Shown piece by piece: positions 1-5,392 of a DNA stretch of 5,392 bases. The notes below the pieces were generated by a model. The model had not been told where the DNA came from, did not search any database, and saw nothing but the letters and a program-made list of their open reading frames with translations. Position 1 is the first letter of the stretch. Each line of letters opens with the position of its first letter. The stretch lies in the IMG/VR virus record IMGVR_UViG_2724679140_000006. The stretch is one strand, 5' to 3'. The position numbers and the translations under genes were made by a program. Source of the stretch: a virus. Taxonomy: Duplodnaviria; Heunggongvirae; Uroviricota; Caudoviricetes.

Positions 1-70
1 TTATCAGTTACAGGAAAACATGACCAGAGTATTCCGAAAAAGAGAATAATCAATAAAATATTGAAAATAC

Positions 71-193
71 ATGGTGCCGGGTGCCTCCCGGTGAATTCTG
101 CAATGACCAGACAGAATCCGCAACTTGCCTATACGATAACGCGACCAAACATCTGTCATTATGCCCCTCCGCTCATGAGGATTCACCATGCAG
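71..193. repeat. Copy A of a structured direct repeat: 25-nt 5' box, divergent hairpin-containing core, 15-nt 3' box
   Basis: The 5' box ATGGTGCCGGGTGCCTCCCGGTGAA (71-95) is identical to 985-1009, and the 3' box GGATTCACCATGCAG (179-193) is identical to 1073-1087. The 5' box contains a GGTGCC direct repeat and a CCGGG/CCCGG hairpin, and the CATGGTG/CACCATG ends are inverted complements. The core is different in sequence from copy B but forms its own hairpin (ATTCTG 95-100 with CAGAAT 112-117). Weaker shared boxes continue to about 257. Strand of any RNA product is unknown. Confidence 0.8.
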
Positions 194-389
194 TACTCTT
201 TTAACAAACTCCCTGCAAGCAGGACAACATTCTGCGTTCTGAGTTGTGTGGAATTTAACACTTCACACCTGTGTGCATTTTCTGCAGGCTGATACCAGCT
301 CCACAATACATCGCAGGCAACAGAAGCCAAATACCCCACCACAGAAAAAACATGCAATTATGATTATTGTTTACTGCAAAGATGTAGAA

Positions 390-1786: not shown

Positions 1787-1861
<75 letters not shown>

Positions 1862-1864
1862 ATA

Positions 1865-1940
<76 letters not shown>

Positions 1941-1942
1941 AC

Positions 1943-2019
1943 TGGACCGCCACCGAGGACTCGAACCTCGTACGCTCAACTTAGAAGGTTGATGCTCTTT
2001 CCAGGTGAGCTAGTGACGA
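1943..2019 (-). tRNA. tRNA-Arg (anticodon UCU)
   Basis: Reverse complement is TCGTCACTAGCTCACCTGGAAAGAGCATCAACCTTCTAAGTTGAGCGTACGAGGTTCGAGTCCTCGGTGGCGGTCCA. Anticodon loop CTTCTAA as in argU-type tRNAs, T-loop TTCGAGT, encoded CCA. Acceptor stem has two G-U wobbles including U1-G72. Confidence 0.75.
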
Positions 2020-2020
2020 C

Positions 2021-2096
2021 AGGTGGCCCTTGCTGGATTTGAACCAGCGACCTGGCGATTATGAGTCGCTCGCTCTCACCACTGAGCTAAAGGGCC
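2021..2096 (-). tRNA. tRNA with CAU anticodon, ileX/ileZ-like (probably tRNA-Ile2; tRNA-Met not excluded)
   Basis: Reverse complement is GGCCCTTTAGCTCAGTGGTGAGAGCGAGCGACTCATAATCGCCAGGTCGCTGGTTCAAATCCAGCAAGGGCCACC. Strong resemblance to E. coli ileX as recalled. Anticodon loop CTCATAA. Only CC of the 3' CCA is encoded; the next base is T. Confidence 0.75.
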
Positions 2097-2214: not shown

Positions 2215-2240
2215 GCAAAAAACCCGCTCAATGGCGGGTT
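2215..2240 (-). terminator. Intrinsic terminator downstream of the ORF6N-like gene
   Basis: Minus-strand hairpin AACCCGCC-ATTGA-GCGGGTT followed by TTTTTTG. Confidence 0.6.
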
Positions 2241-2335
2241 CTGGTAAAGTTCATGCGCTTGGTTCGCCTCGCGATACAGCTTTGCGAAGCGTACCGGAAT
2301 TGAAGCAGTTTATGTGCAAAAATGCAAGAACTTTT

Positions 2336-2893
2336 TTAAAGCTGCATCAGCCTTTCCAGCAGTTTATCTCTGCGAACAACAAACCAACCATTGGCTCTCG
2401 CCAGTTCCAGCCATGACTCAAGGGAAATAACAATATCATCATCCCGTAACTGAATTGTGGAAACAGTGACACCGCCTCTCTGATAACAGAGAACTCGCGT
2501 GTCGTAACTTTTCTGGCATGAAACTGGCGTTGACGGATCCTTTTGACTGAAATAGCAGTCTTCCAGTTTTTCGAACACATCCCACGCCTGATCGGTTTCG
2601 AGTATTTTGGCGTGGCGGGCTGCTCCGCGTTCTGTCCAGAGTATGAGCGAGCGGGCTTTGGGAGAGATGGGATTTTGTGAGTTACTTAAAGTAACCCGCA
2701 AATTTTTCAACTCATCACCAACAACCTTGAAAAAGTGTTTACCCTCAACAAAACGCTCGGAATTACGGGTGTAATTTACTTTGATGTTGTTGATCTCGGT
2801 ACAGTAAAGCTGTGCCAGTAACTCGGTAGTGATAACGGGAATTTGGTTGTGTGTAATTGGGGAAAGAGTTTCGACAGAAATCTGAGTGGCCAT
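2336..2893 (-). CDS. ORF6N / phage antirepressor-like domain protein, 185 aa
   Basis: Start MATQISV at 2893 with GGAG 8 nt upstream; the listed upstream Met has no RBS. N-terminal ~110 aa (NQIPVITTELLAQLY...FVEGKHFFKV.GDEL...LILWTERGAARHAKIL) resembles the ORF6N/KilA-N-type DNA-binding domain of phage antirepressors as recalled. C-terminal ~70 aa is unassigned. Confidence 0.6.
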   Translation of the reverse strand: MATQISVETLSPITHNQIPVITTELLAQLYCTEINNIKVNYTRNSERFVEGKHFFKVVGDELKNLRVTLSNSQNPISPKARSLILWTERGAARHAKILETDQAWDVFEKLEDCYFSQKDPSTPVSCQKSYDTRVLCYQRGGVTVSTIQLRDDDIVISLESWLELARANGWFVVRRDKLLERLMQL

Positions 2894-3057
2894 AACGATA
2901 ACTCCGTACATTTGGACATTATCGCCACCGTCAGGTGCTAATCATCGTGGTGGCGAACTGTGCGGGGTTAGCACTACCGAGTACGGAAACCGGCGAGCCT
3001 TTCGGCTCCCCCACACAGCCCGCCATAAATCGCGAATGTGACTGTGCAAACGATATG

Positions 3058-3079
3058 AAAAAAAGACGCGGGCGCGTCT
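3058..3079 (-). terminator. Intrinsic terminator about 60 nt downstream of the pR'-like promoter (tR'-like)
   Basis: Minus-strand hairpin AGACGC-GCCC-GCGTCT followed by seven T residues. Confidence 0.6.
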
Positions 3080-3141
3080 CATATCGCTCCGTAAACATCC
3101 GGGGTGCTAATCCCGACGCCAGATTTTGCTGGCGCGTGAGG

Positions 3142-3171
3142 AATATAGCCCCGGATAACAGATTGAGTCAA
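3142..3171 (-). promoter_or_regulatory. pR'-like late promoter overlapping the Q stop codon (TTGACT, 18-nt spacer, TATATT)
   Basis: Minus-strand -35 TTGACT (plus 3166-3171, overlapping the TGA stop of the upstream ORF) and -10 TATATT (plus 3142-3147). Promoter immediately 3' of Q followed by a terminator is the classic lambdoid pR'/tR' layout. Confidence 0.5.
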
Positions 3172-3722
3172 CAGATGGTTTTTAGATCCCCGGAAGAGAA
3201 TGCATCACGCATCGGTAGATAGAGCATATATTCAGCAAGATTTAGCCATACATCTACCCGACTGCAGCACGTCCGGAAACACCACTCAGGGTGTGAATCA
3301 TTCAGCAATTCAGCCATTTTTCGCTTAGTCATCCCCCGCCCTTCATATCGTTGCCGGAGGATACAAATCAATCCTGGATGCTCTGCCAGCACCTCACTTA
3401 TGACTCGATCAATACATAACGCCTCTGCATCAGTACAATGCGCCAGCCAGCTCTTTTGCTTGCCGTTGATCATCTCTCGCAAAAACGCTTCCAGCTCAGC
3501 TTTCTCTATTCCCGCTTTTTTCATTCTGCGCAAGGCTTCATTAATGGCTGTTTTCGTCAGTTTTATGGATGTCAACAACTGATTGAACATATTCCCTGAC
3601 CTGCCACCGCCAATATACGACCAGCGCCCCCACATACGTAGTTTTCCCTGAATCCAGACACTTTCCAGCGTGGTGAGGCGAAGGTGTTCTCCGCTTTTTC
3701 CTGTATTCGTTGGGTAAATCAT
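3168..3722 (-). CDS. Putative late-gene antiterminator Q-like protein, 184 aa
   Basis: ATG at 3722 overlaps the TGA of the upstream gene (ATGA, translational coupling). Position is that of Q in lambdoid nin-Q modules and it sits directly before the pR'/tR'-like elements. It has a W-G-x-W motif (RMWGRWS) and Cys clusters. Family assignment is by context and weak recalled similarity. Confidence 0.55.
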   Translation of the reverse strand: MIYPTNTGKSGEHLRLTTLESVWIQGKLRMWGRWSYIGGGRSGNMFNQLLTSIKLTKTAINEALRRMKKAGIEKAELEAFLREMINGKQKSWLAHCTDAEALCIDRVISEVLAEHPGLICILRQRYEGRGMTKRKMAELLNDSHPEWCFRTCCSRVDVWLNLAEYMLYLPMRDAFSSGDLKTIC

Positions 3723-4667: not shown

Positions 4668-4844
4668 TCATTCGCGAACCACCTTGAAACCGAGCCTTTC
4701 AAGGTATTCAATGAATGCCTCGATAGATAAAATTACATGATCATCAGGGATTAACGTTGTGTAGACAACTTTCCCATTCTCAACGCGCACAGCATAGAGG
4801 CCATTTTCACTAAAAATTTTACGCAGTTCTTCGATGTTCATCAT
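4668..4844 (-). CDS. Small hypothetical protein, 58 aa
   Basis: ATGATG start at 4844/4841 with GGAAGGA 5 nt upstream; TGA stop at 4668. Below the 60-aa cutoff of the ORF track. Product MMNIEELRKIFSENGLYAVRVENGKVVYTTLIPDDHVILSIEAFIEYLERLGFKVVRE is acidic and soluble-looking, with no family recognised. A possible TTGAAG-18-TAGAAT promoter lies at 4923-4952. Confidence 0.5.
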   Translation of the reverse strand: MMNIEELRKIFSENGLYAVRVENGKVVYTTLIPDDHVILSIEAFIEYLERLGFKVVRE

Positions 4845-5059: not shown

Positions 5060-5215
5060 TTACTCCTCAGGTTCGTAAACTGTGAAGACAGCGACCTCCG
5101 TCTGGCCGGTTCGGATTCGTACCTCGCAGAGGTCTTTCCTCGTTACCAGTGCCGTCACTATGACGGTTAAACAGATGACGATCAGGGCGATTAACATCGC
5201 CTTTTGCTGCTTCAT
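5060..5215 (-). CDS. hok: Hok/Gef family type I toxin, 51 aa, HokD/RelF-like
   Basis: MKQQKAMLIALIVICLTVIVTALVTRKDLCEVRIRTGQTEVAVFTVYEPEE is near-identical to HokD/RelF as recalled. ATG at 5215 with AGGAG about 9 nt upstream; TAA stop at 5060. The ORF track shows an in-frame 19-codon upstream extension from an ATG at 5272, which may be a mok-like frame. Confidence 0.85.
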   Translation of the reverse strand: MKQQKAMLIALIVICLTVIVTALVTRKDLCEVRIRTGQTEVAVFTVYEPEE

Positions 5216-5280
5216 AGCCTGCTTCTCCTTGCCTTTCGGCACGTAAGAGGCTAACCTACATTTGTGAGACATAGATTGGG

Positions 5281-5338
5281 CCTCAGATTAATGTTAAGCG
5301 TCTTGCAGGACGCGTAATGTTAACTGGGGCTTTTCTCT
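5281..5338 (+). ncRNA. Possible Sok-like antisense RNA 3' end, or a leader structure of hok mRNA
   Basis: Plus-strand compound hairpin: outer CCTCAG/CTGGGG, imperfect arms containing TAATGTTAA twice (5288-5296 and 5315-5323), inner GCGTC-TTGCAG-GACGC (5298-5313), followed by CTTTTCTCT. It is antisense to the region upstream of hok. No convincing promoter found; boundaries and strand are uncertain. Confidence 0.25.
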
Positions 5339-5392
5339 ATCTGCCTTTTGGTGATCATGCCTGAGGCAGATAGCCTCAAGCACCCATTATGA

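Follow-up and report, generated by a model that had tools for sequence, protein, structure and literature searches.

A probable mobile isrK-C4-anr cassette between a DUF1133-family Q gene and its candidate late promoter in an Escherichia coli lambdoid prophage

Introduction

In the immI region of phages P1 and P7, C4 RNA and its target are made on one transcript, from which RNase P frees C4. The a′ and b′ sequences of C4 are complementary to a1 and b1 located upstream and to a2 and b2 at the ribosome-binding site of the target. Citron and Schuster reportedly described in 1990 (cited in PMC7313666) the c4 antisense RNA and its operon of icd and ant, and the heteroimmunity of P1 and P7 is said to arise from alternative a/b sequences.

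The isrK-orf45-anrP-isrJ region of prophage Gifsy-1 in Salmonella is another closely related system (Hershko-Shalev et al., 2016; PMC4825925). Its promoter PisrK yields the short IsrK RNA and a ∼910-nt read-through transcript that extends to the isrJ terminator. The longer of the two is translationally silent, and IsrK supplied in trans increases anrP translation about 140-fold. Processing of the orf45 region gives an RNA of ∼80 nt, STnc1160. AnrP increases the level of antQ-operon transcripts and induces the prophage, and it is not toxic when expressed alone (PMC4825925). In Stx phages, the late promoter pR′, its short RNA StxS and the terminator tR′ were described at the sequence adjoining Q (PMC7547250), and tRNA genes begin the unit downstream of tR′.

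Here we analysed a stretch of 5,392 nt of prophage DNA (the window; all coordinates are window positions). An original prediction, made from the letters alone, had regarded an ORF at 2336–2893 as the first late gene after a lambda-like pR′/tR′, with Q-dependent expression. We report that this ORF is probably the antirepressor gene of a mobile, RNA-gated cassette, and that the late promoter probably lies downstream of it.

Results

The window and its host prophage

The window is 100% identical to part of a lambdoid prophage of E. coli IGC_EcoliInv_1.1 (chromosome NZ_CP054665.1). All of its genes are on the minus strand, in the order hok/sok, a 58-aa ORF, DUF1367, YbcO, DUF1133, the antirepressor ORF, tRNAs and a gene for a TolA-like lipoprotein, the last having one STnc100 element on either side (two in total). 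The early region of this prophage is Rac-like (ydaS/ydaT), and its holin, lysozyme and terminase genes are found 4–8 kb past the tRNAs. At an annotated locus (L001), tolA-like, DUF1737, DUF826, holin, lysozyme and terminase genes lie beyond the tRNAs. The coding features and tRNAs discussed below are as follows.

4668–4844, minus strand: 58-aa ORF, a stand-alone copy of the C-terminal domain of the antirepressor (by homology)
3168–3722, minus strand: Q-like antiterminator gene of the DUF1133 family, 184 aa, directly upstream of the cassette
2336–2893, minus strand: AnrP-type antirepressor gene, 185 aa, an intact ORF with ATG at 2893 and TAA at 2338–2336
1787–2096, minus strand: four tRNA genes (ARAGORN and Rfam), the start of the transcription unit downstream of tR′

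The DUF1133 protein matched Pfam DUF1133 (4.6e-105) and PHROG 753, "anti-termination protein Q-like" (2.9e-79). Its score against Phage_antitermQ was 25.1 bits, below the cutoff of 26 (E 1.8e-5), and a weak match to the N-terminus of Q21 was detected in PDB (E 0.02, 27 residues). The position of the gene would fit a putative Q antiterminator.

The ORF at 2336–2893 encodes an AnrP-type antirepressor homologue

The ORF itself is real. PGAP calls identical coordinates on NZ_CP054665.1 ("ORF6N domain-containing protein"), and >4,500 database proteins match it at E<=1e-5, with some clusters present on up to 1000 contigs; given thousands of matches, it is not a chance ORF. The predicted architecture, an ORF6N-type N-terminal domain followed by an uncharacterised C-terminal region of ∼70 aa, also held: the Pfam profile search placed ORF6N (PF10543) at aa 12–97 (nt 2860–2603, E 1.8e-20) with 73.4 bits against a curated cutoff of 27.8, spanning profile positions 3–86 of 86, whereas the final ∼70 aa match no Pfam family. 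A GGAG Shine-Dalgarno sequence is located 8 nt upstream of ATG 2893, with none such before ATG 2911, and M(A/T)TQ is conserved as the N-terminal start in homologues. A longer ORF starting at ATG 2911 was rejected on these two grounds.

In BLASTP, Gifsy-1 AnrP and the 185-aa protein are 55% identical over 185/187 aa (E 9e-66). PHROG 2379, "anti-repressor", covers aa 1–185 (6e-90). The Ant protein of Stx phages is 79% identical over aa 1–117 and then continues into a P22_AR_C C-terminus, a domain that the Pfam search did not find in the 185-aa protein. The ORF6N domain and a helix ending LEDCYF are almost invariant across relatives. The gene is an ordinary, very common antirepressor homologue in prophages of E. 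coli, Shigella and Salmonella. The end-to-end identity to AnrP lends homology support to one of the originally suggested roles, that of an antirepressor reinforcing induction. It also places the protein in a characterised family (ORF6N and AnrP), an outcome that the original prediction had listed as counting against it.

We examined the C-terminal half, which consists of the following parts.

aa ∼118–128 of the 185-aa protein, minus strand: linker
nt 2518–2339, minus strand: C-terminal domain of ∼60 aa, outside the Pfam copy searched

This small domain comes in several subtypes and has conserved residues D131, L135, G141, D152 and G169-W170. In a search of 1.84 billion representatives about eight clusters look genuine; two further matches, to repetitive surface proteins, were regarded as spurious. 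By this sequence search the domain family is narrow. It occurs fused to ORF6N, fused to Phage_pRha (once) or as a stand-alone protein. The C-terminal halves of Gifsy-1 AnrP and the 185-aa protein are weakly similar and belong to different subtypes. An AlphaFold2 model of the domain, built with the family of the 58-aa ORF, gave a beta-hairpin and two helices at pLDDT 62.5 and pTM 0.41, values too weak for use as a fold-search query. The full-length AlphaFold2 model with 23 homologues (79–100% identical) had a mean pLDDT of 36 and was unusable. Three homologue searches for deeper alignments returned close relatives and nothing more distant, and a PDB sequence search with the 185-aa protein gave no match.

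The candidate resident repressor of the prophage is 153 aa long, with HTH_3 present and Peptidase_S24 absent. The Gifsy-1 repressor likewise has HTH_3 without Peptidase_S24, and a short C-terminal motif is common to both. A short, HTH-only resident repressor without a recognisable autocleavage domain fits antirepressor-dependent induction. We also looked for the repressor partner in relatives, where the 10-kb flanks mostly end before the repressor gene. The C-terminal type of the window was seen with more than one replication/immunity module, both with and without YdaT/YdaU.

The repressor bears on a second possible mode of action, in which the protein would bind DNA itself, as a transcription factor that uses its ORF6N/KilA-N-like domain to activate early promoters directly or to compete there, and would not bind a repressor. 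Family annotation groups ORF6N with the predicted DNA-binding modules KilA-N, Bro-N and Rha, the ORF6N domain is the conserved half of the protein, and the readouts in Gifsy-1 were early transcripts and induction, repressor binding not being among them (PMC4825925). However, the full-length PHROG families and many proteins combining ORF6N with a variable C-terminus are annotated as antirepressors (by annotation only), and the same N-terminal domain is joined to different C-termini, including P22_AR_C, which is named after the P22 antirepressor. A resident repressor without a recognisable autocleavage domain would moreover require some antagonist. We consider a transcription factor of this kind unlikely, and homology supports the antirepressor role of the 185-aa protein.

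PisrK, IsrK and a C4-type RNA precede the antirepressor gene

The region between the DUF1133 gene and the antirepressor ORF contains the following features, identified by Rfam, promoter and terminator scans, by the ORF list and by sequence complementarity.

3142–3171, minus strand: PisrK, a sigma-70-type promoter (−35 TTGACT 3171–3166, −10 TATATT 3147–3142, 18-nt spacer)
3059–3135, minus strand: IsrK small RNA, 77 nt (Rfam isrK 74.4 bits, gathering 50, full model 1–77), consisting of hairpin 1, hairpin 2 with b1 in its loop, a1 and an intrinsic terminator (3080–3063 plus U7)
3096–3148, minus strand: c4-a1b1 motif overlapping IsrK (Rfam 49.8 bits, gathering 46.7)
3110–3104, minus strand: b1 site, UUAGCAC, in the loop of IsrK hairpin 2
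3093–3087, minus strand: a1 site, UACGGAG, in IsrK, 5′ of the terminator
2946–3030, minus strand: C4-type antisense RNA (Rfam C4 74.8 bits, gathering 45)
2931–3026, minus strand: small ORF within C4, 31 codons (ATG 3026, TGA 2933–2931)
2987–2981, minus strand: C4 loop a′, UCCGUAC
2974–2968, minus strand: C4 loop b′, GUGCUAA
2941–2935, minus strand: b2 target site in the mRNA, UUAGCAC, the exact complement of b′
2909–2902, minus strand: a2 target site, GUACGGAG, complementary to a′ over 2909–2903 and extended to 2902 by a G-U pair

The c4-a1b1 motif, IsrK and the C4-type RNA, overlooked in the original prediction, all exceed their Rfam gathering scores. These three elements also precede anrP in Gifsy-1 and ant in the nin region of Stx phages, in an identical order. 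PisrK received a promoter scan score of 10/12; its −35 overlaps the stop codon of the DUF1133 Q gene, and the probable transcript start at ∼3135 coincides with the start of the Rfam IsrK match. Inspection of PisrK by eye revealed no LexA box. The promoter and terminator that had been taken for late pR′ and tR′ thus both exist, as PisrK and the IsrK terminator.

The C4-type RNA lies between the IsrK terminator and the antirepressor ORF and is the counterpart of STnc1160/"orf45" in Salmonella. Its a′ and b′ loops are exactly complementary to a1 (3093–3088) and b1 (3110–3104) in IsrK. The Shine-Dalgarno GGAG (2905–2902) of ATG 2893 falls within a2, and direct occlusion of this element by a′ would be the simplest reading at the window locus. 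The 31-codon small ORF is the positional counterpart of Gifsy-1 orf45. In Gifsy-1 the orf45 stop overlaps the anrP start (AUGA) and couples the two, whereas this overlap is absent from the window, where the small ORF stops 37 nt before ATG 2893.

The specificity sequences covary

The comparison used 45 distinct leaders, which came from prophages in IMG/VR, from Gifsy-1 and from one Stx phage. The C4 RNA has a fold z-score of −5.3, and RNAalifold found 14 pairs with compensatory changes over the 45 leaders; the IsrK hairpins also show compensatory changes. The leaders fall into five a-types and five b-types. Within each type the three copies of a sequence covary, and among the leaders a-types and b-types are found in varied combinations, i.e., they reassort. 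The frame of the small ORF extends to the anr AUG in 6/45 leaders, and the "orf45" frame is not conserved; with so few leaders reaching the anr start, the start/stop coupling of Gifsy-1 cannot be general.

Among the 42 distinct sequences used for the b-sites, the b1-b′ and b′-b2 helices were both 100% paired, and the pairs in which both partners had changed numbered 5 and 4, respectively; for either helix, 0/500 shuffles reached the observed score. When the partner was slid by 1–3 columns as a control, b-helix pairing fell to 14–59%. The a-sites are out of register in the alignment, and a matrix of cognate vs. non-cognate pairing was used for them in place of formal pair counts. In this type-by-type matrix the longest pairing runs were the cognate combinations, and all five a-types paired best with their cognate a2. 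At the level of sequence, the covariation proves the RNA pairing; we infer the regulatory sign of each interaction.

The same pairing can be recognised in Gifsy-1. The published helix b-I corresponds to the b1-b′ pairing of the window. The informative Gifsy-1 mutations affect G28/G31 of isrK and C159/C162 of orf45 (PMC4825925), and by counting along the Gifsy-1 sequence we place these positions in b1 and b′. Mutations in b1 raise translation in cis (PMC4825925), which is not what one would expect from a simple decoy model.

The cassette is found in several contexts

The leader and the antirepressor gene were found together in the following genomic contexts.

Behind the DUF1133 Q protein
28 nt downstream of a 131-aa Q
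Behind AntQ of Gifsy-1, a protein unrelated to DUF1133
In the nin region of Stx phages, behind a DNA methyltransferase, with Q ∼2.9 kb further downstream
Behind NinB
21 nt downstream of an integrase

The TTGAC and (C/T)TATA(T/G)T elements of PisrK were kept in every context with a 17–18-nt spacer, and the sequence 5′ of the −35 varied with the context. A survey of the slot in relatives covered 80 IMG/VR loci encoding a DUF1133 Q; the cassette was present in 31 and absent in 49. In the 49 cassette-less loci, homology to the Q gene of the window ends at about nt 445–524 of 555, and the last ∼30 nt of the DUF1133 gene in the window (about 3199–3168) differ from those relatives. From these comparisons we concluded that window 3199–2342 (minus strand) is probably a mobile isrK-C4-anr cassette lying between Q and the late promoter. 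The cassette is the lambdoid counterpart of P1 immI (c4/ant) and the E. coli homologue of Gifsy-1 isrK-orf45-anrP.

A candidate late promoter unit lies downstream of the ORF

The cassette-less loci indicate what normally follows this Q gene. In 48/49 of them Q is followed within ∼25 nt by a homologue of window 2341–2215 (the 49th reaches the contig end), and in phage vB_EcoS-666R9 this homologue adjoins Q, with one ORF between the segment and the holin gene. In cassette loci the homologue of 2341–2215 starts at the anr stop codon. The segment contains the following elements.

2217–2327, minus strand: probable late promoter unit of the DUF1133 Q (comparative genomics)
2327–2322, minus strand: −35, TTGCAT; TG-extended −10, TGCTTCAAT, at 2307–2299
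From about 2292, minus strand: leader, with a hairpin at 2291–2265
About 2242–2219, minus strand: stem of the terminator, most likely tR′, with a U-run to 2217

Across the aligned 2341–2215 segments the −35 is conserved as TTGCAT, TTGATT or TTGCAA and the −10 as TG-extended TGCTTCAAT. Conservation of the leader extends over its first ∼45 nt, the spacer is variable, and at least 5 different terminator hairpins occupy one position. A conserved promoter and leader with interchangeable terminators argue that the unit is under selection. The 78-nt leader has a fold z-score of −2.6. The −10 (TTCAAT) is weak and scored below the promoter-scan threshold. We considered that the unit might be an isrJ homologue and rejected this, Rfam finding no isrJ in the window.

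Other Q types point in the same direction. Enterobacter phage CobraSix encodes a 59%-identical homologue of Gifsy-1 AntQ and has isrJ (62.6 bits) 16 nt later, with the cassette absent. Where the cassette follows the 131-aa Q, a stretch of ∼100 nt beyond anr shows ∼83% identity to the region next to Q in several hundred Stx-type phages, the site at which pR′ and StxS have been described (PMC7547250). The lambda 6S RNA/StxS region and the 2327–2217 unit are built alike: a promoter next to the Q region, conservation of the initially transcribed sequence and, ∼75 nt further on, a terminator beyond which tRNAs and late genes lie. The sequence of the unit is unrelated to that of lambda or StxS, and its role as a Q target would follow from linkage. 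The assignment of the late promoter to 2327–2217 is probable on this comparative evidence, and the terminator at 2242–2219 is most likely the true tR′. Unlike lambda and Stx pR′, the late unit of the window is separated from Q by an 830-bp cassette.

These data bear directly on the view that the promoter and terminator upstream of the ORF are a Q-dependent pR′/tR′ and that the ORF is the first late gene, requiring Q for expression. The arrangement does resemble lambda pR′/tR′, in that the promoter begins where the Q gene stops and a terminator comes ∼55 nt further on, and a remark in PMC7547250 has Gifsy-1 IsrK transcribed from an antitermination-regulated promoter. That remark rests on the same assumption as the original prediction, and the comparative sequence data argue against it. 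PisrK and IsrK accompany the antirepressor gene behind Q genes of three unrelated types and also where Q is not adjacent; Q proteins recognise their own promoters, so one promoter present in all of these settings cannot be cognate to every Q. Cassette-less relatives with the same Q keep 2341–2215 and not PisrK. In Gifsy-1, AnrP acts upstream of antQ expression, and no action of AntQ on PisrK was reported (PMC4825925). Q-dependent expression of the ORF from PisrK is thus very unlikely. The unit linked to Q, 2327–2217, is downstream of the ORF, and the comparative data place the late promoter there. A late promoter located elsewhere was the second outcome that the original prediction had listed as counting against it. 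The terminator after the ORF, which had been taken as the gene's own, exists as part of the unit that follows Q in cassette-less relatives.

Discussion

We consider it likely that the window carries a mobile isrK-C4-anr cassette whose antirepressor is gated by RNA, and that Q acts on the unit downstream of the ORF. Transcription from PisrK would mostly yield the 77-nt IsrK with a1 and b1, ending at the IsrK terminator. Read-through transcripts would contain the C4-type RNA, b2, a2 over the Shine-Dalgarno sequence and the 185-aa ORF, and would end at the next terminator. Following the P1 paradigm, and consistent with the covariation, binding of C4 a′/b′ to a2/b2 would leave the ORF untranslated, and excess IsrK would titrate a′/b′ via a1/b1 and turn translation on. 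By analogy with AnrP, the 185-aa protein would then inactivate the short HTH-only repressor, derepressing the early operons and Q, and Q would act on the late promoter unit at 2327–2217 rather than on PisrK. The RNA pairings and the gene order are well supported, and we infer the regulatory sign and the protein target. We propose that the gene is an RNA-gated induction trigger or amplifier that ends the early-right region, rather than a late gene.

The original prediction had also raised an anti-defence or host-takeover function. Such a factor, or a toxic (Kil-like) one, would be unrelated to the lysis-lysogeny switch. Some toxic phage proteins carry KilA-N-type domains, and the C-terminal domain of the 185-aa protein is uncharacterised. 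Against this, the close homologue AnrP induces the prophage and is non-toxic alone (PMC4825925), and an immI-like RNA-gated cassette is a design known from antirepressor control. No evidence for such a link was found in the profile, homology, RNA and comparative searches made, and we regard this function as highly improbable. An RNA-gated antirepressor is the reading that we follow below.

The order of parts matches Gifsy-1 isrK-orf45-anrP-isrJ (Hershko-Shalev et al., 2016; PMC4825925): a Q-like gene, PisrK, IsrK with its terminator, a C4-type RNA and an ORF6N antirepressor of ∼185 aa. In both, the antirepressor is followed by a small promoter-leader-terminator unit and then by tRNA gene(s). 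The adjacent Q-like proteins are unrelated, however, the a and b specificity sequences differ, and the downstream unit, which is isrJ in Gifsy-1, is a different one in the window. In the Stx-phage "Ant" cassette (Stx2a_F723, PA28, P27) the PisrK-IsrK-C4 leader has ∼77% nucleotide identity to the window, whereas its a-type (GAAAAAGG) and b-type (UUGGCGU) both differ.

With P1/P7 immI, the window shares the C4 fold, the logic of the a′/b′ loops, an antirepressor cargo and the existence of alternative a/b types. The immI target is an operon, icd-ant1/ant2, whereas that of the window is a single ORF6N protein; no icd-like ORF was found in the window (ORF list and Pfam). Unlike immI, the window has a terminator between a1/b1 and C4, which releases a1/b1 as the separate IsrK. 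P1 and P7 are plasmid prophages, whereas the window element is a lambdoid prophage.

If this reading is correct, the IsrK system of Salmonella and the C4 system of P1 would be one device, with a2 on the ribosome-binding site of the antirepressor and with specificity loops that come in several covarying and reassorting types. In three Q contexts the cassette precedes the Q-dependent late promoter, and models should therefore not treat the antirepressor gene as late-expressed, nor count IsrK among the pR′ transcripts. A more tentative idea, which we put forward as a speculation, is that isrK-C4-anr cassettes are orthogonal, RNA "barcoded" induction switches that insulate the antirepressor gates of co-resident prophages from one another. 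If so, where barcodes match, the IsrK or C4 of one prophage may open or close the gate of another, which would allow RNA-mediated cross-talk or coordinated induction in polylysogens. As a corollary, IsrK would be no by-product of pR′: the cassette would have lodged repeatedly in the gap from Q to pR′, leaving IsrJ and its analogues as the real pR′ leader RNAs. The unification of IsrK with C4, the specificity types and the relocated late promoter are useful for work on prophage induction and phage small RNAs.

Probable mosaic structure of the antirepressor gene

Comparison of the window with loci L005-L035, from prophages carrying a DUF1133-family Q, gave 97-99% identity for the 3′ 204 nt of the antirepressor gene (window 2336-2539) vs. 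69-96% for the 5′ 354 nt (window 2540-2893). This difference indicates a recombination breakpoint within the gene, separating its two domains. The C4 of these prophages was 75-98% identical to the window C4 and was undetected by blastn in four of the compared loci.

The window also carries a separate homologue of the antirepressor C-terminal domain together with the last ORF6N helix:

4668-4844, (-), 58-aa ORF, phrog_340

Pfam PF27490 is precomputed on database homologues of this ORF. The ORF was found in only ∼9 of 77 related loci, and PGAP did not call it as an intact gene.

Some prophages contain two isrK-C4-anr cassettes. The pair in prophage locus L026 (313-914 and 3575-4382) has its b-type in common and different a-types. 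Loci L109 and L137 lie on one 57.7-kb contig, whose two cassettes differ in both a-type and b-type.

Leader RNAs

Within the antirepressor leader, GGUGGCGA has two alternative pairing partners, one being the 3′ side of the C4 basal stem and the other the UCGUUAU that adjoins the start codon:

2922-2929, GGUGGCGA
2949-2956, C4 basal stem, 3′ strand
2894-2900, UCGUUAU

One position covaries across all partners of this pairing. The two possible partners and the covarying position suggest alternative leader structures, which would expose b2 or a2 in loops.

The Salmonella sRNA IsrJ (33406-33480 in the Gifsy-1 locus) begins 16 nt past the stop of the AntQ-type Q in the cassette-less Enterobacter phage CobraSix (locus L242, 1537-1610). 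From this position, IsrJ appears to serve as the short leader RNA from the late promoter of that Q.

Other elements of the window

21-220 and 929-1115, (-), two copies of STnc100 sRNA (Rfam, 105 and 86 bits)
390-818, (-), lipoprotein gene with TolA C-terminal domain
2022-2096, (-), first tRNA gene of the cluster (ARAGORN, Met (CAT); PGAP, Ile)
5060-5385, (-), hok/sok type I toxin-antitoxin module (Pfam Hok, 6.4e-22; Rfam sok, 121 bits)

The lipoprotein gene is flanked by an STnc100 copy on either side, and all three should lie within the late operon. The PGAP call for the tRNA is a lysidine-type reading (cf. ileZ of Stx phages). The hok/sok module is intact and positioned upstream of nin-like genes.

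Repressor candidates and possible routes of repressor inactivation

In this prophage (L001, 20971-21432) and in Gifsy-1 (L003, 41076-41486), the candidate repressors are HTH-only and have a C-terminal motif in common, E..LL.LF..LP..EK (pairwise E 4e-4), which is a possible antirepressor contact. Outside the window and adjoining hokD, L001 encodes a 373-aa protein with HTH_3 and Peptidase_M78 (ImmA/IrrE-like) domains (15196-16317), which could be a second repressor-inactivating route in the same prophage.
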